Numbered from the stretch's first letter, positions 19,311 through 64,000 are shown. The stretch is 64,000 nt of DNA from Candidatus Palauibacter sp. (GCF_965261555.1 NZ_OZ253465.1:878667-942666), one strand, 5' to 3'. Numbers and translations are program-made. The notes: a model not told the origin generated them from the letters alone.

Positions 19311-19374
19311 TCTCCTGCATCTGATCGCGACCAGACCTATCTTCGGGCGGTAGATCGGATGTGTCGATAGCCCG
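19311..19374. repeat. Conserved non-coding block, copy B
   Basis: Same 64-nt architecture as copy A. Exactly 1260 bp downstream of copy A. Lies in the 5' region of the membrane-protein gene. Confidence 0.7.
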
Positions 19375-19423
19375 CAGCCCATTGAGCAGCCGGCTGCGGG
19401 AGCATGGAATTCAGGAGAGCGCG

Positions 19424-47914: not shown

Positions 47915-48759
47915 GAGTCGGCTTTCTTCATTCGCTCATCCGCAAGGACGAGAAGCTGCTGATCGCGGAGTTGCGCGGGCGCGGCGACGTCGAACTGGTG
48001 TTTCTGGACGACCGCAAGCTCGCGTTCGACTTCCGGAACGTCCCGGACGTCGACGTCGTCCTCGAGCGCTGCATCAACCATTCGCGGGCCATGCACGCGT
48101 TGCGGCTGTTCGAGGGGGCCGGTCTCGATTGCGTGAACCGCTACGAGGTGTCGCGCCGCTGCGGGGACAAGATCCTCACCGCGGCATCGCTCCAGGAATG
48201 CGGTGTGCCGCAGCCTGAGGTCAGGGTCGCGTTCACCGAGGAGTCCGCGCTCAAGGCCATCGAGGAACTCGGCTATCCCGTGGTCCTCAAGCCCGCGGTC
48301 GGCTCCTGGGGCCGCCTTCTGTCGAGGATCAACGACCGGCACGCGGCGGAGACGGTCCTCGAACACAAGGCGATCCTGGGCAGCTATCATCACTCGATCT
48401 TCTTCGTGCAGAAGTACGTCGAGAAACGCGGGCGCGACATCCGCGCGTTCGTCGTCGGCGACGACTGCGTGGCGGCCATCTACCGGTCGTCCGAGCACTG
48501 GATCACGAATACGGCACGCGGCGGAACGGCCTCGAACTGTCCGGTGACGAGCGAGATTGGAGAGCTGTCGCTGCGCGCGGCGGCCGCCATGGGCGGGGGC
48601 GTGGTCGCGGTGGATCTGCTCGAGAGCGGCGGCGAACTGCTGGTCAACGAGGTGAACTACACGATGGAGTTCCGGAACAGCATCGAGGCGACGGGCGTGA
48701 ACATTCCGGAGAGGATCGTGTCCTACGTGCTCTCGCCGGACCGGGCGGCGGACCGATGA
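47911..48759 (+). CDS. lysX: ATP-grasp ligase LysX/ArgX (RimK family) that loads substrate onto LysW
   Basis: RimK-like ATP-grasp. Stop overlaps the lysY ATG (ATGA). Confidence 0.8.
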
Positions 48760-49778
48760 TCCGCGCGTCGATCGCGGGCGGCTCGGGCTACGCCGGTGGG
48801 GAACTGTTGAGGCTCCTGCTCGGCCATCCCGACGTCGAGGTGCGGCAGATCACATCGGAGCGCTTCGCCGGGCGGTTCGCGCGCCGGGTCCATCCCAACC
48901 TGCGCGGCGTCACGCGACTGCGCTTCAGCGCGCTCGAGGAGCTGTCGGAGTGCGACGTGCTCTTCCTCTGTCTCCCGCACGGGGAGTCGTCCCGCCGCAT
49001 CGGCGAGTTCCGGTCTCTGGCGGGGCGGATCGTCGACCTGGGCGCGGACTTCCGGCTCGAGGACGGCGCCGACTATGAGCGCTTCTACGGCCGGCCGCAC
49101 CCTCGGCCGGAGCTCCTGGGATCGTTCGTGTACGGGATCGCGGAGGTGAACCGCGAGGCGCTGGCGGCCGCGGAGCTCGTCGCGTGCGCGGGCTGCAACG
49201 CGACGGCCTCCATCCTCGGGCTCCTGCCGCTGTACCGGGAGGGGGTCGCGGACTCGGTCGTGATCGAGGTGAAGGTGGGATCGAGCGAGGCCGGGAACCG
49301 CGCCAGCGAGGGCAGCCACCACCCGGAGCGCAGCGGCGCCATGCGGTCGTATCGGCCGACGGGCCACCGCCACGCGGCCGAGATCGCGGCGGTGCTCGGC
49401 GGCGACGTGCATTTCTCCGCGACGGCGGTCGAGATGGTGCGCGGCGTCCTCGCCACCTGTCACGTGTTCCTGAACCGGGAGCTGGATGAGAAGGCGCTGT
49501 GGAAGATCTATCGGAGCGCGTACGCCGACGAACCGTTCGTGCGCATCGTCAAGGAGCGGAGCGGCATCCACCGCTATCCCGACCCCAACCTCCTGGCGGG
49601 CGCGAACTACTGTGACGTGGGGTTCGAGCGCGATCCGCTCTCGAACCGGGTCGTCGTCCTGAGCGCGATCGACAATCTCATGAAGGGAGCGGCGGGACAG
49701 GCGGTGCAGGCGTTCAACGTGATGCACGGGTTGCCGGAGGCGCGGGGGCTCGAGTTCCCCGGGCTGCATCCGGCCTGA
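48756..49778 (+). CDS. lysY: LysY/ArgC-type N-acetyl-gamma-glutamyl-phosphate reductase family protein
   Basis: [17 protein letters not shown] Rossmann N-terminus. Catalytic Cys region [14 protein letters not shown]. ArgC fold. Confidence 0.8.
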
Positions 49779-49803
49779 CCGCGACACGCGGAGCTGAATC
49801 CTC

Positions 49804-50460
49804 GTGTGCCGCATCCTCTGCGTCCGCAGCGACGAGCCCTTCGACATGGAGCCGCACCTCGCCGCCTTCGCGCAGCTCGCCCGAGAGAGTCCCGAGTATC
49901 AGGGCGACGGGTGGGGGTGCGCCTGGATCGATGCCGACGGGTCCGACGGGTGGCGCGTCTACCGCAACATCTCGCCGGTGTGGGAGGACGCCGCGGCGCC
50001 GCCCGGGCGCACGAGGCTTCTGCTCGCGCACGCGAGGAGCGCGTATCGCGGAGAAGGGATACGGGTCGAGAACAACATGCCGTTCTTCGACGGGGAACGC
50101 GCGTTCATCTTCAACGGGGAGCTGCACGGAGTGCGGATCAAGGAACGGGGGCGGATCGGCGCGGAGAAGGTGTTCAACTTCGTCAAGCGCTTCGATGATG
50201 GAGACATGGGCCGTGCGCTGGAGCGAGGACTCGATGCGATCGAGAAGCGTACCCGTTACGTGCGGGCGATGAATCTGATCATCGCCGATGCATCGCGCCG
50301 GGTCCACTTCGCGACCCGATTCAGCGAGGATCCGGACTACTTCCGGATGCATGCCGCCCACCGGGACGGTGTGCGGATCCTGTGCTCGGCGCCCTATCCG
50401 GCTCCGGACGGGCGGGGGGCGTGGACGCCGGTGGCCAACGGCGCCATCGGGACGTTCTGA
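49804..50460 (+). CDS. Class-II glutamine-amidotransferase-like Ntn hydrolase (EgtC/YafJ type) embedded in the LysW cluster
   Basis: N-terminal MCRILCV (Cys2 nucleophile after Met removal). ...GDGWGCAW...RSAYRGEG...NNMPFFDGERAFIFNGEL... aligns with EgtC/YafJ-type gamma-glutamyl amidohydrolases. Confidence 0.65.
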   Translation: MCRILCVRSDEPFDMEPHLAAFAQLARESPEYQGDGWGCAWIDADGSDGWRVYRNISPVWEDAAAPPGRTRLLLAHARSAYRGEGIRVENNMPFFDGERAFIFNGELHGVRIKERGRIGAEKVFNFVKRFDDGDMGRALERGLDAIEKRTRYVRAMNLIIADASRRVHFATRFSEDPDYFRMHAAHRDGVRILCSAPYPAPDGRGAWTPVANGAIGTF

Positions 50461-50463
50461 TCG

Positions 50464-51276
50464 ATGCGACGCGAACCCGACGGGCTGCTTCTCGTCAAGA
50501 TCGGCGGCGGAGCATCCATCAATCTGGACGGGATCGCTCGCGACCTGGCGGACTTGTCCGGTCCGCTCGTCATCGTGCACGGCGCGAACGCGCTGCGCGA
50601 TTCCCTGGCCCGGAGGCTCGGGGTCGAGAAGCGCATCCTCACGTCCGTGTCCGGACACGAGAGCGTACGTTCCGACCGCGACCTGATCGACGTGATGCTC
50701 ATGGCCTACGCGGGCCTGCGAAACAAGCGCATCGTGGAACTGCTGCAGGGTCGGGGCGTGAACGCGGTCGGGCTCACCGGGCTCGACGGCGCGCTCGTGC
50801 GCGGCCGCCGCAACCGGGGAATCCGGGTGAGAGAGGGCGGCAAGACGCTGATCAAGCGGGACCTGTCCGGGAAACCCGTGGAGGTGAACCACAAGCTGAT
50901 GGCGTTGCTCCTCGACGGTGGTTTCACGCCGGTGGTGACCGTTCCGCTGATCGACGAACACAACGTGGCGATCAACTCGGAGAACGATGACGTCGTGACG
51001 CTGCTGAGCGACGAACTGCGAGCAGACTGCGTGATCCAGTTGATCGAGGCGCCCGGTTTCCTCGAGGACCCTGACGATCCGGGGTCGGTCGTCGCACGGC
51101 TCGCGCGCGCGGAGCTTGCGCGTCGGGAGGGCGAGGTCGCCGGGCGCATGAAGCGGAAGCTGCTCGCCCTGAGGCGACTCGTGGAATCCGGCACGACGCG
51201 CGTGGTGATCGCGGACGGGCGCGTCGAACGCCCGATCTCGGAGGCGCTGGCCGGACGGGGCACGGTCATCGGATGA
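50464..51276 (+). CDS. lysZ: LysZ/ArgB-type amino-acid kinase (acetylglutamate-kinase family)
   Basis: LLVKIGGGASINLDGIARDLADL...VIVHGANA... amino acid kinase fold. Stop overlaps the lysJ ATG (ATGA). Confidence 0.8.
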   Translation: MRREPDGLLLVKIGGGASINLDGIARDLADLSGPLVIVHGANALRDSLARRLGVEKRILTSVSGHESVRSDRDLIDVMLMAYAGLRNKRIVELLQGRGVNAVGLTGLDGALVRGRRNRGIRVREGGKTLIKRDLSGKPVEVNHKLMALLLDGGFTPVVTVPLIDEHNVAINSENDDVVTLLSDELRADCVIQLIEAPGFLEDPDDPGSVVARLARAELARREGEVAGRMKRKLLALRRLVESGTTRVVIADGRVERPISEALAGRGTVIG

Positions 51277-52427
51277 ACGTGCGCGAGACCGAACGGGAGT
51301 ACGCGCTCGAGGTGTTCCCGAAGCGCGACATCGCGGTCGTGCGGGGCGAGGGCGCATGCGTGTGGGACGACGAGGGTCGCCGCTACATCGATTGCGTGGG
51401 CGGGATCGGCGTGGCGAGCATCGGCCACGCCAACCCGGCCGTCGCCGAGGCGCTGGCGGAACAGGCTCGGGTGCTCGTGTCCTGTCCGGGGATCTTCTAC
51501 AACGATGTCCGGGCGCGGTTGCTGGCCGAACTCGTCTCGATCGCGCCGGCGGGGCTCACGCGCGCCTTCCTCTGCAACTCCGGGGCGGAGGCGGTGGAGG
51601 CGGCGATCAAGTTCGCGCGGCTTGCGACCGGACGGGCGGGGGTCGTGTCCGCGATGCGCGGCTTCCACGGGCGAACGATGGGAGCGCTGAGCGCGACGTA
51701 TAAAAGGGAGTACCGGGAGCCGTTCGAGCCGCTCGTGCCGGGGTTCTCGTTCGTGCCGTTCAACCACGTCGAGAAGCTGCGCGCGGCCGTGGGCGACGAC
51801 ACGGCGGCGGTCATCATCGAACCGGTGCAGGGAGAGGGCGGGGTGCGGCCGGCCAGCCCGGACTATCTGTCGGCGGCGCGCCGCATCTGCGACGAGGCCG
51901 GTGCGGTCCTCGTGTTCGACGAGATCCAGACGGGCTTCTGTCGCACCGGCCGCATGTTCGCCTGCGATCGCTACGGCGTTGCGCCGGACGTTCTCTGCCT
52001 CGCGAAGGCGATCGCGGGCGGCGTGCCACTGGGAGCGGTCCTGGCGCATGAACGGCTGCAGCCGCCGCCCGGGCGGCACGGCACGACTTTCGGCGGCAAT
52101 CCGCTCGCCTGCGCCGCCGCCCTGGCCGCGATCCGCTTCATGCGGGATGAGCGGCTCGACGAGCGGGCGGAGGCGCTGGGCGCCCGCTTCAGCGAGCGTT
52201 TCGCCCGGCGGCGGCCGGGTCGCGTGCGCGCCGTGCGGCAGGTCGGCCTCATGATCGGCGTCGAACTCCGCGAGCGCTGCCGACCCTACCTGGGAGCTCT
52301 CGCGGAGCGGGGCGTCCTCGCCCTCCCGGCCGGCACCACGGTCATCCGGCTGCTGCCGCCGCTCGTGATCACCGAAGCGCAGATCGACGAGGTGGCGGAT
52401 ACGCTGACGGAAGTACTGGCCGACTGA
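51273..52427 (+). CDS. lysJ: LysJ/ArgD-type class-III aminotransferase
   Basis: PLP-dependent acetylornithine-aminotransferase pattern ...DCVGGIGVASIGHANP...FLCNSGAEAVEAAIKFAR...VFDEIQTGFCRTGRMFA...LAKAIAGGVPLGAV... Confidence 0.8.
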   Translation: MNVRETEREYALEVFPKRDIAVVRGEGACVWDDEGRRYIDCVGGIGVASIGHANPAVAEALAEQARVLVSCPGIFYNDVRARLLAELVSIAPAGLTRAFLCNSGAEAVEAAIKFARLATGRAGVVSAMRGFHGRTMGALSATYKREYREPFEPLVPGFSFVPFNHVEKLRAAVGDDTAAVIIEPVQGEGGVRPASPDYLSAARRICDEAGAVLVFDEIQTGFCRTGRMFACDRYGVAPDVLCLAKAIAGGVPLGAVLAHERLQPPPGRHGTTFGGNPLACAAALAAIRFMRDERLDERAEALGARFSERFARRRPGRVRAVRQVGLMIGVELRERCRPYLGALAERGVLALPAGTTVIRLLPPLVITEAQIDEVADTLTEVLAD

Positions 52428-52713
52428 CGCCGACCGGGAGCCGCCGGACCGTCGATTCCCGGATGCCCGAATCGACCGGACTCCGGAATTCGTTCGCGGA
52501 GGGGGACTGGACGGTCGCGGAGGGGGATTGGACGGCGCTATGCCGAGCCGAGGAGGTCGCCACGAGTCTTGCGATCACGTGGACACCGCCCAATCCCCAC
52601 TCGCACGCATACGATAGCTGATCGTATGCGACCTGGGAGCGACAGGCAACCGTGAATTGACGACAATTTGACGACATTCGAGTGTTGTGGAGCGACGAGC
52701 AGCAGACTCCCGC

Positions 52714-55320
52714 TTACGGGGTCGCTAGACGAACCACAGCTGTCGTGCGTTCCGCAGTGTCCGGGGGAAACGTAATGCGTACGGTCGCGGGGTTGGCGAG
52801 GGCAGTCGTTGCGGCGCCCTCCACGACGTCAGGTTCGACTGTGGCGCCGAAGATTCCGAGCTCGTAGCTCCGACCCGCTAGCCCCTCCACCTCGAGAATC
52901 CAGCCACCGGGATCCGCGGTGAAGTCGAGGATGCGCAGGCCGCTGCTCCCTTGACCGGGCTCAAGGTCGATCCGGGGCGGCGCGATCGCGAGTCCACCAT
53001 TCCATGTCACGACGATTTCCGCGCGATCGCCCGCAGGGCCGGCCTCGCCGAGCGTCATCTCCACCGTTCCATCCTCGGTGACTTCGGTGGCTACGCCGTT
53101 CACGGTGATGGAGACGTCACGCGCGCCCGCCGGCACGTCGGGTACGAGGCCGAATGTCAGCGCAGGCCCCCTGGTCGTGAGCGTCGTCCGCTGCTCCCCG
53201 CCTTCCTCCGTCCACCGTTGTCGGATCTCCACGTCCGTCGTCGTCTCCCCGGCTCGGAGCCGTCTCACCGTCACGGCCGGCCAGTCCGGCGGGAGTTGCG
53301 GGGCGAGGCGCACGCGGTCCAGCGGCGCATCGGGTTCCCAGCCGATGACGCCGCGCACTAACGGTGTCACCAGGGCCGAGGTCGCGAAGAACTGGTGGGG
53401 GACGGTCTGATCGAGGGGCTCGTAGAACGTTCCGGACAGCAACTCCGGGTGTCGTCCCAGGCTCCAGTCGAAGGTCATCTGCTTCACCGCGTCCATGAGA
53501 TGGAAGCCGGCCCACGGACGCCGATACCGGTACTGGGCCCACGACACGTATCCCGTCACGAAGGGCCATACCGTTCCCATGTTGTACTGGAGGGGGTGAT
53601 AAAGTTCGCTCTCCGTGGAGAGCATGTGCGCGCCCCAGTCCGACGAGATCCGGTCGCTCGCGAGGTGGGCGAGGGTCGCCCGTGCGCGCGCCTCGTCGAA
53701 CAGGCCGAACGCCGCCGCCGTGGCAGGCCACACGGTGAGGTTGTCGTTGGTTCCGCCATCGGCGAGGATCCCGAAGGCATGGTGTCCCGCGTCGTCCAGC
53801 CAGTACGCGTCGTTCAGGGTCGCCCGCGCGCGGGGAGCGAGCTCCCGCGCCCGGCCCGCGATCCCCGCGTCGCCCATGCGTTCGGCCAACGCCATCGTCC
53901 CTTCAAGCGCCGCCACCCAGATCCCCGCCAGGTAGATGTCCTGGTGGAGCGCGGCCCCGAGGCCGCCGACCTCGACCGCCGCGAGCCCACCCACGGTGTT
54001 CTCGATGATCCCGTCCCCGTCCGTTTCGGCGGTGAGGCACCACGCCCAGGCGCGCCGGTACGCCGGCCACAGTTCCCGCAGGAGGTCGTCGTCGCCGCTC
54101 GCCCGCCAGTACTCGTAAAGGGCGACCATCCAGTAGGGCGTCGTGTCGGCGTGGTAGTAGGCGTACGGGTACACGTCGAACCACGGGATGCGCGCGGCCG
54201 CCTGAGAGATTTCGTGCGTGATCTTGCCGTCCTCGCGCTGGTAGGTCGCGAGAAAGGCGAGTTCCTCCGCCACCAGTTCCCACTGCCCGAGCGCCTCCAT
54301 GGCGAACATGGTCTGCGCCGCGTCGCCGCCGAAGAACCAGCCGAAGCCGGGACGGGTTCCGTTGCGGGAATGGCCCCACCCGGCGACGAACCCGCAGCCG
54401 AGGTCGGGGTTGCAGACGCGCTGCTCCTCCAGGTTGATCTTCGCCCACTCGAGGGCGAGGTCGAGCCGCGGATCCGGCGATTCGATGGAGACGGTGGAGG
54501 CGAGCACCGAGTCGGCCCATGCTCGCTTCGCGTCGTAGAGCGAGCGCGCTTCGGCGATCAGCCGTTCGTAGCTGGCGAAGACCTCCTCGCGGGGCGTGGT
54601 TCCGCCCGCCACCGCGATCGGGATGAATTCCCGCCGCGCGCGCTCCGGGTCGACCGGGATCACCATGGTGCGCGGCGCCTCGCCCAGTTGGTGCGCCGGG
54701 TGTTCCACGGAGTTCACGGCCCACGGAGAGCCGACGACGGCGTTCCTCTCCTGCAGGCTCTCGGAGAGCACGAAGACGCGACGGGCGGCGTCCCAGTAGG
54801 CGTACTGCCCCCCGATCGAACCCGGCCACATGTAGTTCAGCACGGGCTCGAACTCCGCGATGATCTCGAGCGGTTCCGGGCTGTCCACATCGAGCAGGAG
54901 CAGAAGGCCGGGGAGGTCGGCCGGCGCGAGGATGTGCTGGCGCACCCGGAAGGCGGCGTGGCTGTAGGTGATCGTCGTGAGTTCGGGCCGAACCTGCACG
55001 GTGCGCGCGACCTCGTCTCCCGGAATCGGCGTCCCGTAGGCCGGCGTCGAGAAGCCGAGCCGGAAACGGTTCCCGACCTTGAGGGGATGGACCCACAGTT
55101 CCGCTTCGCCCGTCTCGAGCCCCAGCCACGCGGACCGGGGCCCGGTGACGCCGAGATACTCGCCGGGACGCACGGGTCCCGCGAGTTCGATCGGCGAAGG
55201 CGCGATCTCGAAACGCGGAACCCCGGCTGCGGACTGGCCGGAGCCGTTCGCGGGCAGGCCCGCGGCCACCGCGACGAAGAGCGCAGGAAGCGCGACGCGC
55301 GAGTTACTTTCGAGAGCCAT
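52714..55320 (-). CDS. Secreted (alpha/alpha)6-barrel glycoside hydrolase, amylo-alpha-1,6-glucosidase/GDE_C-like
   Basis: Signal peptide. N-terminal beta-sandwich. Central six-hairpin region (...GCGFVAGWGHSRNGTRPGFGWFFGGDAAQTMFAMEALGQWE...GKITHEISQ...YWMVALYEYWRASGD...). C-terminal beta domains. Confidence 0.55.
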   Translation of the reverse strand: MALESNSRVALPALFVAVAAGLPANGSGQSAAGVPRFEIAPSPIELAGPVRPGEYLGVTGPRSAWLGLETGEAELWVHPLKVGNRFRLGFSTPAYGTPIPGDEVARTVQVRPELTTITYSHAAFRVRQHILAPADLPGLLLLLDVDSPEPLEIIAEFEPVLNYMWPGSIGGQYAYWDAARRVFVLSESLQERNAVVGSPWAVNSVEHPAHQLGEAPRTMVIPVDPERARREFIPIAVAGGTTPREEVFASYERLIAEARSLYDAKRAWADSVLASTVSIESPDPRLDLALEWAKINLEEQRVCNPDLGCGFVAGWGHSRNGTRPGFGWFFGGDAAQTMFAMEALGQWELVAEELAFLATYQREDGKITHEISQAAARIPWFDVYPYAYYHADTTPYWMVALYEYWRASGDDDLLRELWPAYRRAWAWCLTAETDGDGIIENTVGGLAAVEVGGLGAALHQDIYLAGIWVAALEGTMALAERMGDAGIAGRARELAPRARATLNDAYWLDDAGHHAFGILADGGTNDNLTVWPATAAAFGLFDEARARATLAHLASDRISSDWGAHMLSTESELYHPLQYNMGTVWPFVTGYVSWAQYRYRRPWAGFHLMDAVKQMTFDWSLGRHPELLSGTFYEPLDQTVPHQFFATSALVTPLVRGVIGWEPDAPLDRVRLAPQLPPDWPAVTVRRLRAGETTTDVEIRQRWTEEGGEQRTTLTTRGPALTFGLVPDVPAGARDVSITVNGVATEVTEDGTVEMTLGEAGPAGDRAEIVVTWNGGLAIAPPRIDLEPGQGSSGLRILDFTADPGGWILEVEGLAGRSYELGIFGATVEPDVVEGAATTALANPATVRITFPPDTAERTTAVVRLATP

Positions 55321-55396
55321 CGTCCCTCCGGTCGTCTCGGATCGGTGCCCTAAACCCTGGTTGACTCGCCGGCATCACGGTAGCCAAGTTCGCCAC

Positions 55397-56434
55397 ATGA
55401 CGACCAGAAGCAATCGAACGTCGACGTACAGCGCTGCGCTGCCGCCGTTTCCCGAAGGCTGGTATTTCATCGGAAAGCGCGCGTCCATCGAGCGCGCGAA
55501 GCTCATCGAGAAGACGTGGATGGGCGAGGAGATCGTCGCCTGGGCCGACGACGAGGGCCGCATCTGCGTGGCGGACGCCTTCTGTCCGCACCTGGGCTCG
55601 CACATGGGACCCGCCGCGGGCGGCCTCGTGCGCGACGGCTGTCTCGTGTGCCCCTTTCACGGGTTCGAATTCGATACCGCCGGCCAGTGCGTGGCCACGC
55701 CCAATGCCCCGCCCCCGAAAGCGGCGAGGTTGAAGCTCTACGAGACGCGGGAGATCCTCGGCATGATCTTCGCCTGGTGGGGGAGCGGCGGGAGACCGCC
55801 GCAGTGGCACCTGCCCGATGAGCCACCCACGGGCGGTGAGTGGTCCGGATTGCGATCCACGACCATGCGCTTCCGCGGCCACCCCCAGGAGACCGCCGAA
55901 AACTCCGTTGATGTGGAGCACCTGGGCTACACGCACGGCTACGACGATGTGGTGCCGACCGACTTTTCGGTCGATGGAGCCTACCTGAAGAGTTGCTTCG
56001 ACTTCAAGAGCGTTCGCCGGATCGCGGGTCTGGCGGATATCCGCTCCGAGGTCTCGGCCGTCACACACGTCCATGGACTCGGCTATTCCTTCGTTGAAAT
56101 CCACGAGACGGCGGTCGGCATAAGGTCGCGCATGTGGGTGCTTTCGACACCGGTCGACGGCGAGTCGGTGGATCTGACGCTGGTCAGCCAGGTGCATGAG
56201 GTCCGCAAACCCCGACGGCGCATCGCGGGTCTGGCCTTCCTGCCCGTGGCGCTGCGCCACAGGCTGCTGAATCTCTTCGTCATACGGGAGGAGAGACGGT
56301 TCGTCCTGCAGGACGTGGTCATTTGGGAAAGGAAGCGCTACCGGTCCCCGCCCAGGCTGTGCCGAGCCGACGGCCCCATCGGAAAGTACCGCAGATACTG
56401 CCGGCAGTTCTACCCGGACCAGGGGGGACGCTAG
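55397..56434 (+). CDS. Rieske [2Fe-2S] non-haem-iron oxygenase (KshA/SdmA/Neverland-type alpha subunit)
   Basis: Rieske ligands CPHLGSHM...CPFHGF. Mononuclear iron motif ENSVDVEHLGYTHG (D-x2-H-x4-H). About 345 aa. Convergent with the P450 gene and overlapping its stop by 4 nt. Confidence 0.75.
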   Translation: MTTRSNRTSTYSAALPPFPEGWYFIGKRASIERAKLIEKTWMGEEIVAWADDEGRICVADAFCPHLGSHMGPAAGGLVRDGCLVCPFHGFEFDTAGQCVATPNAPPPKAARLKLYETREILGMIFAWWGSGGRPPQWHLPDEPPTGGEWSGLRSTTMRFRGHPQETAENSVDVEHLGYTHGYDDVVPTDFSVDGAYLKSCFDFKSVRRIAGLADIRSEVSAVTHVHGLGYSFVEIHETAVGIRSRMWVLSTPVDGESVDLTLVSQVHEVRKPRRRIAGLAFLPVALRHRLLNLFVIREERRFVLQDVVIWERKRYRSPPRLCRADGPIGKYRRYCRQFYPDQGGR

Positions 56435-58476
56435 ACCGGTATCTCGCGGTGTTGCTCGGCGATGTGGAACATGAGCTTCTTGCTCGGCTTCATCGACGGA
56501 AGCGGGTCGAACTTGAACTTGTAGCCCGCCGGCACCTCGAGCCTGAAGTAGTGCGCGATCATCAGCACGTTGACCGCCAGTTGCAGTTCCATCCACCGGA
56601 AACCGAGACAGGTATGCGTGCCCAGCCCATACGGCGCGTACCCCGGACTCTTATGCTCGTCGCGTGGCGGCAGGTAGCGGTCGATGTCGAACGAGAACGG
56701 GTCCGGGAATACATCTTTCATGTAATGGGAGGCCGTAGAGGCGATGAAAATGTTGCTCCCCACCGGCAGTTCGTAGCCCTCGACCACACACGAGTTCATC
56801 ACGGTCCGCATGGACCCCGGGACGACCGGATACATGCGGAGGAATTCCATCAGGAATCGGTGGGTCACATCGATCGACGACCCCGTGATGGCGTCGCCAT
56901 CCGGGTCGCCATCCCCGAACAGCGCATCGGCTTCGCTCCGGATTCGCTCGTAGAGTTCCGGCTGCGTCGCCATGGCGTACACCGCAAAGCTGAGCGCGTC
57001 GCCGAGGTACACGCTGGCGACCAGCGCCGCCGAGAGCGCGAAACGCAGATTCGATTGCGGCACGAACTGCGGGTCGCTCCCGTGCAGGCTGAGCCAGTCG
57101 TCCGCCAGGTCCCGCGGGCATCCGGCTCGCTGTTCGGTGGTATGCACGCTCTGGATCCGCTTCAGCAACGTGTCGACGGTGGCTGCGCGGCGTTTCATGC
57201 CCGGCGTCTTCAGCATGAAGCCGGGCATGGCCTTCATGATCTTGACGGTGAGCGCGCGCTCCTTGTACACCGACAGATCGTCGAAGATGTCCTGTGAATC
57301 GACGCCGACGGACAGAGGCGAAATCTGCGCGTTGGCCATTCGGCGGCAGAGCGACCTCGCCTGGTAGGTGTCGCCGACCTTCCAGTCCGCCATGAAGTTG
57401 CGGGCATACTCGTAGAGAACGTCCGCCTGGTCCGCGAGTCTCCCGCGGGAATACGCCGGCGAGATGGCCTTGCGAAGCCGGAAATGGTCGGCGCCATCCA
57501 GCGACGGCAACACGCCGTTCGCGCCGTAGACTTTCTCGAAGTCGGCGAAATAGTCCTTGGTTCTCACGTAGATCCGGCTGTGCCGGTGTGCCCAGCGATT
57601 CGTCTCCGGGCCGACGAGGAAGAGCATGGGTTCCTTGAACGGCGGGCGGAGCTCGAACACCGGCCCGTACTCCTTCGCAAGTTCCGCGATGATCGCGGGA
57701 AGGTTGCCGGAGCGCAGATGCGGGTTGAGCAGCACGTGACGCAGCTTGACCTTCGGAATGTGCTTGGTGAGGGCCGAACGGCGAAGCAGGGGGCCGGCGA
57801 GGTTGTGTACGACGGCGGCGGCGATGGACCGGCCGATCAGATCCATCCGGCAGATGAACTCGATGCGTTCCTCCGCCTCCTCATCGAGTTGGAAGATGTA
57901 GCGAAAGACATCGCACGTATTGACGAGGCAGATGATGATGACGTCTCTCGGATCCGGAATCTCGTCGGAGAAGATGACCCTCCCGATTCGCGTCCTGGTG
58001 AACTGACGAGCGGTGCCTTCCTCGGCGGCGCCATCCGGTTCGGACTCCCAGGCGCCGCGAGCCAGCGTCCAGAAGTCGCCATCGTGGTGTTCCAGGATGT
58101 TCAATCCGACCAGGCGCTCCAGCGTCCGGTCGATGATGGACTCCGCCCGCGGGGCGAGCCGTTCGATCCAGTACCGGGCGGTCCGTCGATGGGGTGCTTC
58201 CGCGATTTCCTTTAGAAAGGGGTCCAGGACGGGGTCGCCCGTTTCGGTGGGGTCCACGAGGAAAAGGGATTCCATGTCCGTGTCGATGCGCGACAAAAGG
58301 GAGAGTTCCGCGAGCACGGCGCCGGCGACGGCGCAGTTCAACTCCCAGCCGGGGACCTGGTGGAAGTAGCCGCTCTCCTCGTTGAGGAGCATCAGGATCA
58401 ACTCCTCGGGCAGGCTCAGCGCTTGATTGGAAACACTCCCTGTAGGGACGACCATAGGGCTCGACCGCCCGTCCAT
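56431..58476 (-). CDS. Cytochrome P450 fused to an N-terminal GPP34/GOLPH3-like domain
   Basis: C-terminal ~470 aa carry the ExxR K-helix (EFLRMYP), PERF-like PDPFSFDIDRY and haem-thiolate loop YGLGTHTCLG. The I-helix (VYLGDALSF) lacks the usual acid-Thr pair. N-terminal ~200 aa match the GPP34 family (LSLPEELILMLLNEESGYFHQVPGWELNCAVAGAVLAELSLLSRI...). ATG at 58476. An alternative GTG lies at 58503. Confidence 0.75.
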   Translation of the reverse strand: MDGRSSPMVVPTGSVSNQALSLPEELILMLLNEESGYFHQVPGWELNCAVAGAVLAELSLLSRIDTDMESLFLVDPTETGDPVLDPFLKEIAEAPHRRTARYWIERLAPRAESIIDRTLERLVGLNILEHHDGDFWTLARGAWESEPDGAAEEGTARQFTRTRIGRVIFSDEIPDPRDVIIICLVNTCDVFRYIFQLDEEAEERIEFICRMDLIGRSIAAAVVHNLAGPLLRRSALTKHIPKVKLRHVLLNPHLRSGNLPAIIAELAKEYGPVFELRPPFKEPMLFLVGPETNRWAHRHSRIYVRTKDYFADFEKVYGANGVLPSLDGADHFRLRKAISPAYSRGRLADQADVLYEYARNFMADWKVGDTYQARSLCRRMANAQISPLSVGVDSQDIFDDLSVYKERALTVKIMKAMPGFMLKTPGMKRRAATVDTLLKRIQSVHTTEQRAGCPRDLADDWLSLHGSDPQFVPQSNLRFALSAALVASVYLGDALSFAVYAMATQPELYERIRSEADALFGDGDPDGDAITGSSIDVTHRFLMEFLRMYPVVPGSMRTVMNSCVVEGYELPVGSNIFIASTASHYMKDVFPDPFSFDIDRYLPPRDEHKSPGYAPYGLGTHTCLGFRWMELQLAVNVLMIAHYFRLEVPAGYKFKFDPLPSMKPSKKLMFHIAEQHREIPV

Positions 58477-58530
58477 GTAATTTTGAGAAGCACCGGACGG
58501 CACGGCTTGTTCCGGTTGCCGTCGCCATTG

Positions 58531-59061
58531 TCAAGGATGGCGTGACTCGAACATCCAGGTCAAGCCAACGTGCAGGGCCGTTGCATCCGCTTCGGACTCC
58601 GAGGCCCCGCCGGCGCGGAGGGCAGCGGCACGTCCCGCATCCGCACCCTCGATCCAGGAGTGCGAGTAGTCGAAACCGAAGTTCACGCCGCCTCGATACC
58701 AATTCTGCCTGAGTCCGACATCGACCTCGCCGAAGCCGGGTAGCGGCCGCGCGACTTCGTCGTCGGCCGTACCGAAATGACCCCACAGCGCCACGAACGT
58801 GGGTTGCAGGCTGTCACTCAAGTTCTTGGATGCCGCCAGTGCGAGAGTGGTGCCATCTCCCGCATCCCCACCCTCGAACCACGCATACGTATAGCCACCG
58901 AAGGAGCCTGCAAAAAACGACCCGGCGCCCGTGGCGTCGGTTGCGCGCGGTTCACGGAACACCCTGGAAGACTCTGATCCGTCGTGCGGAAGCGGATGCC
59001 GGCACCGGGGGCGAGGACGGTGCTCGCCAACTCGGCCCCCAGGCCAGCGAGTAAAGCGCAC
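58531..59061 (-). pseudogene. Probable remnant of an outer-membrane beta-barrel protein (C-terminal ~120 aa only, no signal peptide)
   Basis: ...GYTYAWFEGGDAGDGTTLALAASKNLSDSLQPTFVALWGHFG...VDVGLRQNWYRGGVNFGFDYSHSWIEG...ATALHVGLTWMFE has alternating amphipathic strands and a terminal W.F as in OMP barrels. The N-terminal part is Arg-rich and lacks a signal sequence. Confidence 0.3.
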
Positions 59062-59260
59062 TCGGTCGATGACCGATGCTGCTTCAGGTGACGGTCGAGC
59101 CGCTCTGCGAGCTTGGCGGCTGGCGGAACGCCAAGACGGTGCTCAACTGCTACCAGAGGCCCGACGAGGGACAGCGGGGGGCATCCGATTGGTGGAGGCG
59201 GTCTCGGCCCGGACGGCAACGGCGACTGGCAGGCCGTGGCGGGGCTTTTGCCACGGGCTG

Positions 59261-60295
59261 CTAGGGTTTGCGAGCCAGGAAACAGTACAGCGGCGTAAAG
59301 ATACCCGTCTTGCCGCCCGCAACGTACGCCTCCGCGGTTCGATCGAGGAGCCGTGCGACTGCCGCCGAGCCATTCGGAAAGAACCGCAGTACCTCGGCCA
59401 GCTTCGATCCCGCGATGATCACCTTGCGGCCCCACGCAAGCCCGCACAAGGCGCTCCCCAACGTCCCGTGGCGACTCTCCATGGGTTGATACCAGGGCGT
59501 GGAGGGTCCTTCCCGAACCTCCCAGTCGCTCCCCTCGATGACCTGGAATCCCGCCCCTTCGAGCGCGTGATTCACTTCCCCGAAGGTGGCGATGTCGTGC
59601 AGCGCAATACCGCGCATGAGGTCCCGCTTGATGGTCCGGTGCCGTGCGTTCCGCGGATCGAACCGGTCCGTCAGACACATTTCCTGACCCCAGAACAGGG
59701 CACCCGGTTTCAGCACGCGGAAAATCTCGGCGAAGGCGCGTTGCTTGTCCTGCGCATGGCACGTTGACTCTATGGCGTAACCCGCGTCGAAGGTGTCGGC
59801 CTCGATGGCGCTCATGTCCGCGAAGCTGCACTTCCTGAAGTCGGTCATGTCCTCCAGCCCCGCCTCGGCGTTCAACTTCTTCGCCTCCGCCAGCTGGATC
59901 TCATTGATGTTGATTCCCGTGACCCTGACACCCGCCTCACGGACGACGCGGCGCATGGGGCCGCCGACTCCACAACCGACGTCGACCACCTTCATGCCCT
60001 GTTGAAGCTCCAACCGGGAGATCATCGCCCGCTGGTGCCGGACCTTGGACTCCTCCGGACTTTCGTCAGGCGTGAGGGGCGCGAAGTGCAGGGATTCACC
60101 CCAGCTCCACACCATGATGCCGTTGCAAAGCTCGTAGTAGTCCCTGACCGTTTCCTCGTGGTCGTAGCCGCCCTCGCCTCCGGCCCGCCCGACCCATCCA
60201 TCGAAGTGTCGCACGCGATGCGCCACGTCCGATCCCCGGTACGCTTCCGTCAGCGCTTTCGACAGTTCGCCCAGCCGCTTCGCGTGGCGCTTCAA
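59261..60295 (-). CDS. Sterol C-24 methyltransferase (Erg6/SMT1-type SAM-dependent methyltransferase with Sterol_MT_C domain)
   Basis: End-to-end similarity to Erg6. YYELCNGIMVWSWGESLHFAP (Erg6 [20 protein letters not shown]). SAM motif VVDVGCGVGGP. AGYAIESTCHA (AIEATCHAP). FRVLKPGALF (YKVLKPGGTF). TPWYQPM (IPWYYPL). C-terminal VAGGKTGIFTPLYCFLARKP (VAGGKSKLFTPMMLFVARKP). A TTG start at 60295 abuts the RND stop. An alternative TTG at 60355 would overlap it. Confidence 0.85.
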   Translation of the reverse strand: MKRHAKRLGELSKALTEAYRGSDVAHRVRHFDGWVGRAGGEGGYDHEETVRDYYELCNGIMVWSWGESLHFAPLTPDESPEESKVRHQRAMISRLELQQGMKVVDVGCGVGGPMRRVVREAGVRVTGININEIQLAEAKKLNAEAGLEDMTDFRKCSFADMSAIEADTFDAGYAIESTCHAQDKQRAFAEIFRVLKPGALFWGQEMCLTDRFDPRNARHRTIKRDLMRGIALHDIATFGEVNHALEGAGFQVIEGSDWEVREGPSTPWYQPMESRHGTLGSALCGLAWGRKVIIAGSKLAEVLRFFPNGSAAVARLLDRTAEAYVAGGKTGIFTPLYCFLARKP

Positions 60296-63200
60296 GCGGG
60301 CAACTCGCGTCGCTGCTCCGAGCGGCCGCGCGACCTTGCCCGCCGCGCCAGCCAACGCTGGTGGATCGAGGTCAGCGCCGGCACGAGGAACATCAGCAGG
60401 ACCGTGGTGAAGAGGATGCCGCAGCCGATCGAAGCGGAGAAGGGCACGAAGAACTGGGCCTGAATCGCGTCTTCGAGGATGAGGGGCGTGAAGCCGAGGA
60501 AGGTGGTCAGCGACGTCAGCATGATCGGGCGGAAACGCCCCTTGGCACCCTCGATGATCGCTTCTCGTGCCGGCAGGCCTTCCTCGAACTCCTGGTCGAT
60601 GAAGTCGATCATGACCAGGGAGTCGTTCACCACCACGCCGGCGAGGCCGAAGACCCCGATGAAGGACTCGGAGCTGAGTGCGACACCCAGGACCCAGTGG
60701 CCCAGAATCACCCCGATCAACCCGAACGGGATGATAGCCATAATGATGATCGGCTTGGTATACGAGCGCAGCGGAATCGCGAGCAGCGCGAAGATCATGA
60801 TCATGGCGATCCCGAAGCCGGGGCCCAGCGCATTCAGGGATTCCAGCTGCTGCTGCGGTTCACCTCCGAAGGTGTAGGTCAGTTCCGGGTCCTCGGCGAC
60901 GATCCCCGCGAGGATGTCGTCTTCCAGAATGCGGTTGGCGCGCCCGCCGGATATCACCTCCGGATCCACATCCGCAGTGACCCTGACGATGCGCTGGCCG
61001 TCCTGGCGATGGATGGCGGGCGGCGACATGCCCGAGCTCAGCGAAGCCACACGGCTCACCGGGACCTCGGCGCCGCCGGCCGTCCGAACCAGCGAACTTT
61101 CGATGTCGGTGATCGAGTTGCGCTGCTCCTCGGGCAGCCGCACGTACACCCGAACCTCTTCGCGGCCGCGCTGCACCCTTAGCGCCTCCGCGCCGAAGAA
61201 CGCGGCTCGCGTCTGCCAGGCGAGGTCGTCGAGGGTGAGACCGAGAGTTCGTGCCTCGGGTAGCAGGCCCAGCTGGATTTCCGGGATGCCGGGGGTGTGG
61301 TCGGAGCGTATGTCGTGGACGCCGCCCACTTCGCGGAGGCGATTGACGACCGTGGTTGCGACCCCGGGGAGCTGCCCCGGGTCCGGATGGGACAGTACGG
61401 CCTCCACGGGGTTGCCCAGGTCGTAGATCTGGCCGCTGATGGTGACCGCGCGCACATAGGGCAGGACACCCAGTTCCTCGCGCCACGCCTGCACGACTTC
61501 CGCGGTTGGAATCCGCCGGTGCTGCGCGTCCAGGAGCTTGAACGAGATGCTGGCGACATTGGGCTCCGGGTTCAACCTGAGGTTGGGACTGAGCCCCCCT
61601 CCATCGACCCGCGGCCGTTGACCGACCGTAATCGTTACCCCGGACAGCAGGGGCGGTGCATCGGCGGGCCTGTCTGCGGAGATCCGCTCGATGACCCGGT
61701 GGCCGGCCGCCTCCAACTCGCGCGCCACCTCGTAGGTTCGCTGGGCCGTCGTCCCGTCCGGCATCTCCAGGGTGGCCGTTGCGAAATCGCCTTCGACCTC
61801 CGTGGCAAAGGTGAACGGAACGATGCCCGCCGGCAGCAAGGCAAGGCACAGGACGAGCAGGGCGATTGCGGACGCGAGCGTCACTCCGGGTCGATCGGTC
61901 GCGAAACTCACGCCGCGGTGCAGGGGGCCCTGCACGAATCTGCCCAACTGCAGATCGACCTGAGCCTGAATCCGGGATACGAATCGCCCAAGGCGCGTTC
62001 GGGGCGCCCACTCCGGTCCGTGGAGGTGGTGAGAGAGGTGGTTGGGCAACACCAGCAGCGATTCGATCACCGAAATCACCAGCATCGCGATGACGATGGT
62101 CGGCAGCGCCTTCCAGATTTCTCCGATCCCTCCTGGAATGAAGAGCAGAGGAGAGAACGCGGCGATGGTGGTCAGCACTGCGAAGATGAGAGGCACTTTG
62201 ATTCGCCGGGCCCCGCGTATCGCCGCGACGACGCCCGGCGTGCCCCGCATTCGTTCCAGGTGGATGTACTCGGAGACGACGACCGCATCGTCCACCACGA
62301 TTCCGATGGCGAGCACGAACGAGAAGAGGGAGACCGCGTGGATGGCGAGGTCGAACGCCATCATCGCGGCCAGGGCACCGACGCCGGACACCCCGAGGCC
62401 GACGGCTACCCAGAAGGCAAGCCGGAGTTCGAGAAACAGTCCCAAGGCCAACAGCACCAGCAACAGCCCGAGAAGACCATTCTTCATGAGGATGCCGGCG
62501 CGCTCCTCGAAGGCATCGGATGCGTCGTTCAAGATGGTGACGCCCACGCCGTCCGGGAGTGACGGGGCCACCTCGTCGGCGACGTACTGCCGAACGGCGC
62601 CCGCCACATTCATCACCTTCTCGCCCTCGGCCCTCGATACCTCGACGAAGACGGCCGGCAGACCGTCGTGCCGGACGATCAGGTCCAGGTCCTGGAAGCC
62701 GTCGCGCACCTCGGCGATGTCGCCCAGTCGTACCACCGTGCCGTCCCCGCGGCTGAGCAGTACGATCTCCTCGAAGTCCTGCTGATCGTAGCTCTGTCCC
62801 AGGGTGCGCACCCTCACCTGGGACTGCTCGGTGTCGATGCTGCCGGCGGACAGATCCAGCGAACTGCGGCGAATTGTGTTTGCGATATCGGGGAGCGTGA
62901 GTCCAAGCGCTCTGAGCCGCTGCAGCGGCACTTCGATCGAGATCTCATAGTTGCGGATGCCGCTCGTCTCTACCTGCGAGACGGAAGGCAGCGCGGCGAG
63001 TTCATCCTCGATCCGGTAGGCAAGCTCCTTCAACGTTCGCTCGGGGGCATCGCCGTAGACGGCCAGGCGCATGATGCTCTCGGCGTTGGTCAGCTCCCTG
63101 ATCTGGGGCCGCTCGGCTTCTCCCGGGAACGTCTGGATTCGGCCGACCGCCGCTTCCACCTCGGCCACGGCATCGTTCATCTCCGTGCCCGACCGCATTT

Positions 63201-63513
63201 CCACCCTGACCGACGCCATGCCCGGGGCCGCCACGGACTTCACCGCCTTCACGTTGCCCAGCCCTTCGACCTCGTCCTCGATCTTGGCGACGATGGACTC
63301 CTCGACCTCCTCGGGGGTGGCGCCCGGATAGGCGACGGAGACCTCGACCTGGTTGAAGGGCACGGTGGGCCAGGCTTCCAGCTCGAGCCCGAAGAACGAG
63401 GCCACGCCCGCGACGAGAATGCCGACCATCAGCAGATTGGCGGCCACGCTGTTGCTCGCCATGTAGGCGATGGGGCCGCCGGGTTCGCCGTGATTCCTTC
63501 CGTTCGAAGTCAT
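60292..63513 (-). CDS. RND efflux transporter permease (AcrB/HAE1-type, 12 TM, two large periplasmic loops)
   Basis: 1073 aa. Canonical AcrB-like organisation and motifs (...SIVAKIEDEVEGL..., ...AIGIVVDDAVVVSE..., ...GLAGVVVNDSLVMIDF...). Confidence 0.85.
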   Translation of the reverse strand: MTSNGRNHGEPGGPIAYMASNSVAANLLMVGILVAGVASFFGLELEAWPTVPFNQVEVSVAYPGATPEEVEESIVAKIEDEVEGLGNVKAVKSVAAPGMASVRVEMRSGTEMNDAVAEVEAAVGRIQTFPGEAERPQIRELTNAESIMRLAVYGDAPERTLKELAYRIEDELAALPSVSQVETSGIRNYEISIEVPLQRLRALGLTLPDIANTIRRSSLDLSAGSIDTEQSQVRVRTLGQSYDQQDFEEIVLLSRGDGTVVRLGDIAEVRDGFQDLDLIVRHDGLPAVFVEVSRAEGEKVMNVAGAVRQYVADEVAPSLPDGVGVTILNDASDAFEERAGILMKNGLLGLLLVLLALGLFLELRLAFWVAVGLGVSGVGALAAMMAFDLAIHAVSLFSFVLAIGIVVDDAVVVSEYIHLERMRGTPGVVAAIRGARRIKVPLIFAVLTTIAAFSPLLFIPGGIGEIWKALPTIVIAMLVISVIESLLVLPNHLSHHLHGPEWAPRTRLGRFVSRIQAQVDLQLGRFVQGPLHRGVSFATDRPGVTLASAIALLVLCLALLPAGIVPFTFATEVEGDFATATLEMPDGTTAQRTYEVARELEAAGHRVIERISADRPADAPPLLSGVTITVGQRPRVDGGGLSPNLRLNPEPNVASISFKLLDAQHRRIPTAEVVQAWREELGVLPYVRAVTISGQIYDLGNPVEAVLSHPDPGQLPGVATTVVNRLREVGGVHDIRSDHTPGIPEIQLGLLPEARTLGLTLDDLAWQTRAAFFGAEALRVQRGREEVRVYVRLPEEQRNSITDIESSLVRTAGGAEVPVSRVASLSSGMSPPAIHRQDGQRIVRVTADVDPEVISGGRANRILEDDILAGIVAEDPELTYTFGGEPQQQLESLNALGPGFGIAMIMIFALLAIPLRSYTKPIIIMAIIPFGLIGVILGHWVLGVALSSESFIGVFGLAGVVVNDSLVMIDFIDQEFEEGLPAREAIIEGAKGRFRPIMLTSLTTFLGFTPLILEDAIQAQFFVPFSASIGCGILFTTVLLMFLVPALTSIHQRWLARRARSRGRSEQRRELPA

Positions 63514-63650: not shown

Positions 63651-64000
63651 TCACCGCGCCGGATCGGTTCCGGTCTGAACGCGCATGCCTTCGGCGGCGA
63701 ATTGAATGCCACCGGTGATCACGGCCTGGCCGTTCTCGAGGGAACCGGTCACAAATACCTCGTCGTCAGCGCGCTGCAGCACGCGGACCGGAATGATGCT
63801 CACGACACCCGCTTCGCTCACCGCCCAGACTTCGTTGCCCGTTTGTAGCGCCGCGCGTGGTACGCGAAAATAATCCTCCGGTGAAACACCGTCGATTTCC
63901 ACTTCCACGAACTTGCCGACCAGCAGGGGAGGGCTGCCGGACGCGCTGGATGCGCTCGCGGAGACGCCCGCCGCAAAGGGGTCGGACACGCGCACGATCA
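63651..64000 (-). CDS. RND periplasmic adaptor (membrane fusion protein), C-terminal part; gene continues beyond the window
   Basis: C-terminal beta-barrel/MP domain of HlyD-family adaptors (...GKFVEVEIDG...VPRAALQTGNEVWAVSEAGVVSIIPVRVLQRADDEVFVTGSL.NGQAVITGG...). Start lies past position 64000. Confidence 0.6.
   Translation of the reverse strand, partial: IVRVSDPFAAGVSASASSASGSPPLLVGKFVEVEIDGVSPEDYFRVPRAALQTGNEVWAVSEAGVVSIIPVRVLQRADDEVFVTGSLENGQAVITGGIQFAAEGMRVQTGTDPAR

Follow-up and report, generated by a model that had tools for sequence, protein, structure and literature searches.

Introduction

Proteins in which an N-terminal GPP34 domain is followed by a C-terminal cytochrome P450 were named GPP34_L by Ferreira et al. 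in 2025 (Microbiome 13:4, PMC11706023), who described 656 of them, reported from sponge symbionts only. Of the symbiotic Gemmatimonadota, 92.6 % carried them, as did 14 of the 16 phyla with GPP34 proteins, the other two having the short form alone. The genes were found to be transcribed in Aplysina aerophoba, and the family to be absent from free-living relatives. Rare fusions of GPP34 to a Rieske protein or an ABC ATPase were described in the same work, together with P450 genes lying at most five genes away from a stand-alone GPP34 gene. GPP34 proteins were proposed to be secreted effectors that bind phosphatidylinositol 4-phosphate (PI4P) and block phagosome maturation; the P450 was given no role, and flanking genes were examined for the short form only. 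Here we analyze the GPP34–P450 fusion gene encoded on a stretch of 64,000 nucleotides from Candidatus Palauibacter sp. (GCF_965261555.1, NZ_OZ253465.1:878667-942666), the whole of which is called the window in the following. Palauibacter is a genus of Gemmatimonadota with sponge- and coral-associated species, and the fusion family is among the most characteristic, functionally unexplained gene families of sponge symbionts.

The gene context of the fusion redirects the hypothesis on its function from host phosphoinositides to the tailoring and export of sterols. What we observe is an intact two-domain protein, predicted to be a cytoplasmic heme-thiolate protein, whose gene belongs to a conserved mobile module, the module being continuous with sterol gene clusters in some genomes. 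To the reading that we are dealing with a cytoplasmic P450 that tailors or handles sterols and is docked by an adaptor domain, and not with a PI4P-binding effector, we give about an even chance.

Results and Discussion

An intact member of a described fusion family

The fusion gene is a single open reading frame (ORF) without interruption, and its codon-position GC contents of 0.63/0.42/0.84 are like those of the genuine genes in this window of 68 % GC (Table 1). GPP34 (PF05719) covers residues 31–231 and profile positions 1–198 of 201 with an E-value of 9.5e-32 and 111.1 bits (cut-off 29.1), whereas p450 (PF00067) covers residues 263–664 with an E-value of 3e-37 and 128.9 bits (cut-off 22.8). 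The first domain is therefore matched over its whole length and well above the curated Pfam gathering score, in agreement with the original prediction, made from the DNA alone, that the first ~200 residues are GPP34-like and fused in frame to a complete P450; the peptides quoted for that match are present in the translation. Both domains are found on one protein of 654–690 residues in 120 of the 120 best database homologs, and a scan of one genome per species for the same architecture returned collinear fusion ORFs in at least 556 loci. These two results rule out a frameshift or an assembly artefact as the origin of the fusion, and no frameshift or stop codon parting two genes, the outcome named beforehand as fatal to the idea, was found. 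A fusion of a P450 to its redox partner, as in BM3 or CYP116, was considered and rejected, as GPP34 and p450 are the only domains detected and the domain joined to the P450 carries no cofactor-binding motif.

As homologs begin at Met17 of the 690-residue reading, which is counted from a GTG codon, translation probably begins at the ATG at 58455, for a protein of 674 residues. An AlphaFold2 (AF2) model of this shorter form, calculated with a diverse alignment as input, reached a mean predicted local distance difference test score of 89.5 and a predicted template modeling score of 0.85, the latter over the whole chain, suggesting that the GPP34 and P450 domains pack against each other in a fixed way. 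Sequence prediction returned neither a signal peptide nor a transmembrane segment. Rfam, promoter and terminator scans of the fusion gene region gave no matches, and its repeats comprised nothing relevant.

The original prediction had further taken the architecture to be undescribed. This does not stand, as GPP34_L was published in 2025 (PMC11706023) and the closest of the matches listed, an NCBI entry annotated as 'cytochrome P450' of Candidatus Palauibacter sp., is 94 % identical. The remark that bacterial GPP34 usually stands alone agrees with the stand-alone form being the commoner one (PMC11706023). Among the matches listed, hundreds of GPP34_L proteins are 72–96 % identical to the window protein, and the loci stem from sponge and coral series of metagenome-assembled genomes (MAGs; SB06xx bins, Plut and others) belonging to the same phyla as in Table 1 of PMC11706023. 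As a single two-domain protein from a lineage of sponge and coral symbionts, the product of the window gene is a typical representative of a very large, already described family.

What appears to be unreported is its context, a horizontally shared module of sterol modification and export, and the loss of the lipid-headgroup pocket. The main text of PMC11706023 contains neither the sterol and transporter gene context nor the lost PI4P pocket or the derived I helix described below, and no link between GPP34 and sterols was met in the literature searched. The text and supplements of Brown et al. 2023 (PMC10070321), a study of symbiont sterol genes, do not mention P450, GPP34 or Rieske proteins, and neither Brown et al. 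nor Kelly et al. 2022 (PMC9531527) list the fusion, a KshA-type oxygenase or an amine oxidase as members of the clusters.

Sterol genes and transporters as conserved neighbors

We compared 80 loci of the window's subfamily from Gemmatimonadota, Latescibacterota, Nitrospirota, Chloroflexota, Verrucomicrobiota, Binatota, Thermodesulfobacteriota, Bacteroidota, Alpha- and Gammaproteobacteria, counting a neighbor if a homolog of at least 50 % identity was located within 8 kb of the fusion gene. A KshA-type Rieske oxygenase was present in 66 of the 80 loci and a sterol methyltransferase (SMT) in 53 (53–57 across counts), so that one or the other accompanies the fusion in 73. Any transporter of the resistance-nodulation-division (RND) superfamily was found in 65 loci, an AcrB-type RND protein in 23 and an MMPL protein with a Patched/sterol-sensing-like domain in 42, while a protein of the FAD amine-oxidase family was encoded in 41. 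Only two loci had no neighbor belonging to this module, one of them being a contig of 2.9 kb. The SMT is the commonest immediate neighbor and lies within 400 nt of the fusion gene in 41 of the 80 loci.

In several genomes this module is physically linked to sterol genes with experimental support (SMT, sdmA/sdmB, ERG24, CYP51 and the oxidosqualene cyclase OSC). A Nitrospirales locus (L081) encodes in one row the fusion, an SMT, a Rieske/KshA_C protein, an outer-membrane protein (OMP), an amine oxidase, a further SMT, SdmB-like and SdmA-like proteins (293 and 407 bits against NCBIfam, each under the equivalog cut-off of 600 bits), ERG24 and a P450. Another locus (L082) places the fusion in a row with an amine oxidase, an MMPL/Patched/sterol-sensing-domain transporter and a Rieske/KshA_C oxygenase, and sdmA/sdmB/ERG24 occur within 8 kb of the fusion in five loci (L004, L019, L034, L038, L053). 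One of these, L038 (JAAXIB010000027.1, 70,077 bp), shows its genes in the same order as the scaffold that Brown et al. (PMC10070321) label 'Nitrospira sp., coral reef', and appears to be that scaffold. By their numbering, the fusion would sit directly beside SMT '2 of 2' (IMG 2682229270), one of the SMTs they tested, followed by SMT '1 of 2', sdmB, sdmA, ERG24, ERG11 and OSC. The SMT of the window has its 74 % identical ortholog in this '2 of 2' protein, while the adjoining '1 of 2' enzyme is reported to have methylated desmosterol in vitro (PMC10070321).

Fusion proteins of different phyla share 72 % identity on average and up to 92 % (Binatia versus Thermodesulfobacteriota), and for 14 of 80 proteins the nearest relative belongs to another phylum. 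These high identities and cross-phylum relationships indicate that the family has spread horizontally among host-associated bacteria of about 10 phyla; horizontal transfer was likewise inferred for symbiont sterol genes by Kelly et al. (PMC9531527). Within the genus the locus is plastic. The closest genome among the matches listed, a Candidatus Palauibacter MAG (L001), is 94.8 % identical to the window in blastn over 48402-58426, and this match breaks off at the 5' end of the fusion gene. The following segment with ORF176 and the SMT gene has no counterpart in L001, and the RND genes of the two genomes share only 75 % identity, a pattern that indicates insertion or replacement of a cassette.

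A second Palauibacter genome (L085, 8001-15510) carries in this same place of the locus a GPP34-only gene of 340 aa, annotated as 'GOLPH3/VPS74 family protein', in tandem with a full-length GPP34–P450 gene; the GPP34-only gene is a truncated extra copy, and an AcrB-type RND gene and an ISL3 transposase adjoin the pair. As close 'GPP34-only' proteins exist in the databases and at least this one is a truncated copy beside a full fusion, some database entries for short GPP34 proteins may be truncated fusion copies.

A search of 1.84 billion cluster representatives returned dozens of clusters of full-length collinear fusions with 27–42 % identity, which shows the GPP34–P450 fusion to be old and diverse. 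Of six distant members looked up, four are adjoined by an AcrB-type RND pump; one is preceded by a sulfotransferase and one by a glycosyltransferase. Coupling to RND transporters thus seems general to the GPP34–P450 superfamily. Fusions with 33–42 % identity lie directly beside AcrB-type RND genes, often together with OEP and membrane-fusion genes (L084, L086, L089, L090, L091), and L089 has two fusion genes on a single contig. In L083 (1572-4720) a GPP34–P450 gene with a canonical I helix overlaps the stop codon of a sulfotransferase gene, and in L090 (1403-4560) such a gene overlaps that of a GT4 glycosyltransferase gene, which suggests that other subfamilies pass hydroxylated products on to sulfation or glycosylation. 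The company of sterol genes is found for the window's subfamily; in L084, one member of a sister cluster (P0245) likewise has the gene of a KshA-type Rieske protein close by.

These distant relatives bring up the detoxification and efflux of non-sterol lipophiles of host or microbial origin, such as terpenoids, alkaloids or lipids of the hopanoid type, with the P450 oxidizing the compound, the RND pump expelling it and GPP34 coupling the two. An AcrB-type RND protein is the most general partner in the superfamily, often with OEP and membrane-fusion proteins, and is encoded in the window as well; sulfotransferase and glycosyltransferase neighbors would suit such a role, as would the MMPL partner, which is best matched by HAE3/HpnN models. 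However, the commonest partners within this subfamily are a methyltransferase with a Sterol_MT_C domain and a KshA-type Rieske protein, at least one of which accompanies 73 of the 80 fusions, several loci abut sdmA, sdmB, ERG24, CYP51 or OSC, and a detoxifying monooxygenase would be expected to retain the canonical O2-activating I helix that this clade has lost. We regard detoxification as unlikely.

The GPP34 domain and its PI4P pocket

The original prediction had taken the N-terminal domain, as a homolog of GOLPH3, for a lipid-headgroup-binding module that could recruit the P450 to a membrane or lipid substrate. A profile of this domain searched against the PDB retrieved only GOLPH3 and Vps74 with E-values below 0.02, though weakly (GOLPH3 at E 0.0035), followed by a UspA-family protein (3s3t, E 0.13), and a single-sequence phmmer search of the PDB did not detect GOLPH3. 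The PI4P pocket of GOLPH3 consists of W81, R90, R171 and R174, and PI4P binding by GOLPH3/Vps74 is lost when these residues are changed to alanine in pairs (Wood et al. 2009, PMC2806290). We aligned the domain profile by hhalign with human GOLPH3 (sequence identical to PDB 9qpq), spanning GOLPH3 residues 56–253. At the hhalign probability of 60 % reached by this alignment, one of the four pocket residues is kept: W81 corresponds to W53, which is invariant in this subfamily, whereas R90 corresponds to A60 (variable A/V/I/M), R171 to E121 (a near-invariant Glu) and R174 to I124, and a deletion of 10 residues directly precedes the equivalents of R171 and R174. The AF2 model has strands at 121–124 and 128–131 (674-residue numbering) where the protruding beta3/beta4 hairpin of GOLPH3, which is required there for membrane binding and oligomerization, aligns. 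The domain carries a net charge of −16 compared to +1 for the GOLPH3 core. The linker following it is strongly basic, the 35-residue stretch that holds it having a net charge of +7, contains the invariant P238 and P250, and is situated where eukaryote-type P450s have their N-terminal anchor and hinge.

Because of the mostly replaced pocket, the acidic domain and the deletion, recognition of PI4P by this GPP34 domain is unlikely. The lipid-headgroup part of the original idea is not supported, while a role as adaptor or in docking to a membrane or partner protein is plausible.

This bears directly on the sole published idea, in which the protein is a secreted eukaryote-like effector that halts the maturation of the phagosome by attaching, through its GPP34 domain, to host PI4P on this compartment, with the P450 as an accessory (Ferreira et al. 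2025). It can draw on the distribution of the family, reported from sponge (and coral) symbionts only and absent in free-living relatives (PMC11706023), on the transcription of the genes in A. aerophoba, and on true Pfam membership of a domain with an invariant W81 equivalent. The PI4P-binding residues of GOLPH3 do not back it, however, with three of four replaced (R90 by A/V, R171 by E, R174 by I) next to the deletion and a strongly negative charge. The protein is predicted to have neither a signal peptide nor a transmembrane segment, and the conserved neighbors comprise no secretion-system genes; they encode RND pumps and lipid enzymes of the cytoplasm or inner membrane. In addition, a heme P450 depending on bacterial redox partners would be an odd cargo. 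We therefore consider an effector function improbable.

The P450 domain and its derived I helix

The second domain shows the hallmarks of the P450 family, namely the profile match, the P450 fold, a Cys-ligand loop of the FxxGxxxCxG type and the ExxR motif. In the alignment of close homologs the loop YGLGTHTCLG and ExxR (E553/R556) are intact and invariant, the G.G.H.C.G pattern recurs in ~197 of 200 family sequences, and the PERF-like FDIDRY region is invariant across about 10 phyla. Membership in CYP51, prompted by the best sequence matches and by the His at Cys-2, was rejected, as identity to solved CYP51s amounts to 14–20 %, where about 30 % or more is expected of a member, and the I helix differs.

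The I-helix acid-alcohol pair, which is typical of P450s but not obligatory, is missing, as had been claimed in the original prediction. The I helix reads ASVYLGD in place of AGx(D/E)T and contains no acid-Thr pair under any of the three registers examined, which were taken from HMMER alignments, from a multiple alignment with distant relatives and from the canonical +16 spacing of Thr to Pro. The registers given by HMMER with CYP184A1 and with Methylococcus CYP51 conflict, while the +16 spacing and the multiple alignment concur in matching AGLDT to ASV-Y. In that register the acid residue is deleted and Tyr499 takes the place of Thr. ASVYLGD is invariant in the alignment of close homologs, the motif S(V/A)YLGD is present in at least 186 of 200 sequences of the window's subfamily, and the deletion-type I helix is common to this subfamily and its nearest sister clusters P0241, P0245, P0246, P0248, P0249, P0251 and P0261, and to one stand-alone P450 relative (P0331). 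AGLDT, AGIET or AGLHT are kept by most distant GPP34–P450 fusions (27–40 % identity) and by the nearest stand-alone P450s. From this distribution, the acid-less I helix is, by sequence comparison, a derived, clade-specific trait. That the motif was derived and then fixed while the Cys loop and ExxR stayed conserved argues for a selected change of chemistry, not decay. We met no description of a one-residue deletion combined with Tyr in a P450 I helix in the literature searched.

The lost acid-alcohol pair, together with the lack of a conserved redox partner nearby, also invites the view that the P450 domain is catalytically dead or senses heme or a ligand, making the protein a regulator or carrier. 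Yet the Cys loop, ExxR and FDIDRY have remained invariant across about 10 phyla, and the altered I-helix motif itself is nearly invariant, as would be expected for a selected active site. Moreover, several active P450s lack the pair, namely CYP74, CYP8A1, CYP152 and EryF. A dead or sensory P450 domain is, in our estimate, distinctly improbable.

Proposed role

In the reading we prefer, a sterol-tailoring or sterol-handling P450 docked by its GPP34 domain, the fusion would be one enzyme of a module for the tailoring of sterol side chains or rings and for export, whose sterols are either made by the bacterium itself or derived from the host. The P450 domain would bind the sterol, and the modified sterols would then be moved by the RND-superfamily transporter. 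Because its I helix has lost the acid and carries Tyr in place of Thr, the P450 probably works without the canonical proton relay for O2 activation. Protons may be delivered by another, substrate- or Tyr-assisted route, that is, by unconventional O2 activation; alternatively, the enzyme may rearrange, desaturate or dehydrate an already oxygenated intermediate such as a product of the Rieske oxygenase. Eukaryote-type P450s have an N-terminal membrane anchor; the GPP34 domain would stand in for it and most likely docks the P450 at the inner membrane or at the partner transporter, in the manner of GOLPH3 with the cytosolic tails of membrane proteins. An adaptor common to oxygenases and transporters would fit the rare GPP34 fusions to Rieske proteins and ABC ATPases and the P450 genes beside stand-alone GPP34. 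Since the neighbors are sterol genes, sterols, as put forward in the original prediction for a spectral binding assay, are a well-aimed choice of ligand.

Several points weigh against this reading. The functional case is one of guilt by association. The window has just three genes of the module, OSC and CYP51 not being present there, and no ferredoxin or reductase was found among the conserved neighbors of the 80 loci. Neither the amine oxidase nor the MMPL transporter scores as a curated equivalog, and the latter is nearer to HpnN/HAE3 than to the sterol transporter BstA, so that a hopanoid or other lipid substrate is possible. The comparison of the pocket depends on a GOLPH3 alignment of no higher than the hhalign probability given above, and 2 of the 14 environmental SMTs assayed are reported to be inactive (PMC10070321).

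Catabolism, in which the KshA-like oxygenase and the P450 would start the breakdown of host sterols for carbon as KshA and CYP125/CYP142 do in actinobacteria, is very improbable, for although KshA (3-ketosteroid 9-alpha-hydroxylase) is the best solved relative of the Rieske neighbor and the steroid side-chain P450s CYP142 and CYP125 are structural matches, if far down the list, a biosynthetic, SAM-dependent SMT lies within 400 nt in 41 of 80 loci, KstD, KshB, Hsa and beta-oxidation genes are not among the conserved neighbor clusters, and some loci are contiguous with genes of de novo sterol synthesis.

A more specific and rather doubtful version of sterol tailoring would have the fusion, the Rieske oxygenase, the amine-oxidase flavoprotein and the SMT form a pathway of sterol side-chain remodelling with RND export, for example by restoring a double bond, which would allow the SMT to add more carbons. 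The symbionts would then contribute directly to the unconventional sterols of sponges, among them those that serve as the oldest animal biomarkers. The P450 would carry out non-canonical chemistry with a hitherto undescribed Tyr-containing, acid-less I helix, and the GOLPH3-fold domain would be a bacterial adaptor between enzyme and transporter. If true, sterol tailoring by the fusion would bear on the question of who makes the unusual sponge sterols, which is behind the debate on the 24-isopropylcholestane biomarker, and on how symbionts handle host sterols. It would also add a conserved P450 clade in which the acid is missing through a deletion and the catalytic Thr has given way to Tyr, and a bacterial adaptor role for the GOLPH3 fold.

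Other features of the window

Table 1. Positions of the fusion gene, its domains and motifs, and the neighboring genes, counted from the first nucleotide of the window.
Feature	Coordinates	Strand	Evidence and remarks
KshA-type Rieske non-heme-iron oxygenase, about 344 aa	55400..56434	+	Pfam Rieske and KshA_C; longest ORF from 55079
Fusion ORF	56431..58503	-	ORF listing, Pfam, AF2; 690 aa from GTG, likely 674 aa from 58455
Cytochrome P450 domain	56512..57717	-	Residues 263-664
Heme-thiolate loop YGLGTHTCLG	56602..56631	-	Translation; Cys632 ligand, His at Cys-2
Non-canonical I-helix motif ASVYLGD	56998..57018	-	Translation
Inter-domain linker	57718..57810	-	Residues 232-262, between the two Pfam envelopes
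GPP34/GOLPH3-like domain	57811..58413	-	Residues 31-231 of the 690-aa ORF; Pfam 111 bits
ORF176 and SMT segment, 1.9 kb	58427..60355	.	Without counterpart in L001
ORF176	58531-59061	-	In the 805-nt gap between SMT and fusion gene
ERG6-type sterol C-24 methyltransferase homolog	59261..60355	-	Pfam Methyltransf_11 and Sterol_MT_C (55.9 bits, cut-off 21.7)
AcrB-type RND inner-membrane transporter	60292..63513	-	Pfam ACR_tran, 532 bits; upstream, same strand
HlyD-type membrane-fusion protein, C-terminal part	63660..64000	-	tblastn with L001 HlyD-family protein, 77 % over 91 aa

The Rieske gene converges on the fusion gene with a 4-nt overlap of the latter's stop codon. Its best solved relative is the KshA structure 4qdc (E 1.4e-23), and the metal-binding motifs CxH...CxxH and DxxHxxxxH are intact in the translation. 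Upstream of the fusion and on the same strand, the SMT translation has the region-I-like motif WSWGESLHF. The HlyD-type gene, for the membrane-fusion protein of the RND pump, extends beyond the end of the window; the L001 protein used as query belongs to the HlyD family by Pfam. ORF176 is either a genuine gene or a remnant: it has no Pfam or NCBIfam match, no homolog in 80 related loci and, compared with the OMP gene of L081, no similarity. Its C-terminus is OMP-like, and within it a 52-nt sequence is repeated at 71 % identity and a distance of 225 nt, with the peptides WFEGGDAGDG and WIEGADAGR.

Beside the Rieske gene, a glycoside hydrolase of 868 aa (52714-55320, minus strand) resembles GH116, the family of non-lysosomal glucosylceramidases, and is syntenic in Gemmatimonadota loci only (5 of 80). 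A protein of 234 aa (46970-47674, plus strand) strongly matches the TMEM164 family, known mainly from eukaryotes (E 7.7e-49), and is found at the same place in the Palauibacter genome with the tandem copy (L085). The row of LysX/RimK ATP-grasp, semialdehyde dehydrogenase, amino-acid kinase and class-III aminotransferase genes at 47911-52427 (plus strand) resembles a carrier-protein-type cluster of lysine or arginine biosynthesis and is syntenic in Gemmatimonadota relatives. Two overlapping long ORFs (19361-22128, plus strand, and 20467-21924, minus strand) have no Pfam match and an unusual codon-position GC of 0.82/0.56/0.79. The remainder of the window consists of housekeeping genes.

Comparison with known systems

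GPP34_L of sponge symbionts (PMC11706023) is the closest described system. Its architecture is the same, its proteins have about 675 aa and occur in the same phyla, Gemmatimonadota among them, and we see no structural difference to the window protein. GOLPH3 and Vps74 (PDB 3KN1, 2ZIH) belong to the same Pfam family and share the W81 equivalent, with a hairpin predicted at the aligned place in the window domain, whereas the window domain lacks R90, R171 and R174, has the 10-residue deletion, is acidic instead of near neutral and is fused to an enzyme. By analogy, it may work as an adaptor like GOLPH3, though not as a reader of PI4P.

The P450 domain is 14–20 % identical to the sterol-acting P450s CYP51, CYP46A1 and CYP90B1, has neither the AGQHTS signature of CYP51 nor any acid/His-Thr pair, and belongs to none of these families; with CYP51, whose B' helix carries the signature YxxF/LxxPxFGxxVxF/YD, it shares only a partial resemblance in the B'-C region and the His at Cys-2. 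The allene oxide synthases CYP74, CYP8A1/CYP5A1, the CYP152 peroxygenases and EryF are alike in lacking the pair while retaining an intact Cys ligand, and in them the loss accompanies rearrangement of peroxides or endoperoxides, use of H2O2 or substrate-assisted catalysis. Among the best matches, no sequence relationship to these families was detected, and here the change is a one-residue deletion with Tyr. P450 BM3 is a two-domain P450 as well, and its heme domains are good structural matches to the window P450, whereas the extra domain in our protein is N-terminal, lacks flavin or iron-sulfur motifs and is not an electron-transfer domain. For the gene context, the counterparts are the symbiont sterol clusters (PMC9531527, PMC10070321), which occur in the same organisms, show the same evidence of horizontal transfer and comprise the very SMT, sdmA, sdmB, ERG24, CYP51 and OSC genes that accompany the fusion in some of our loci.

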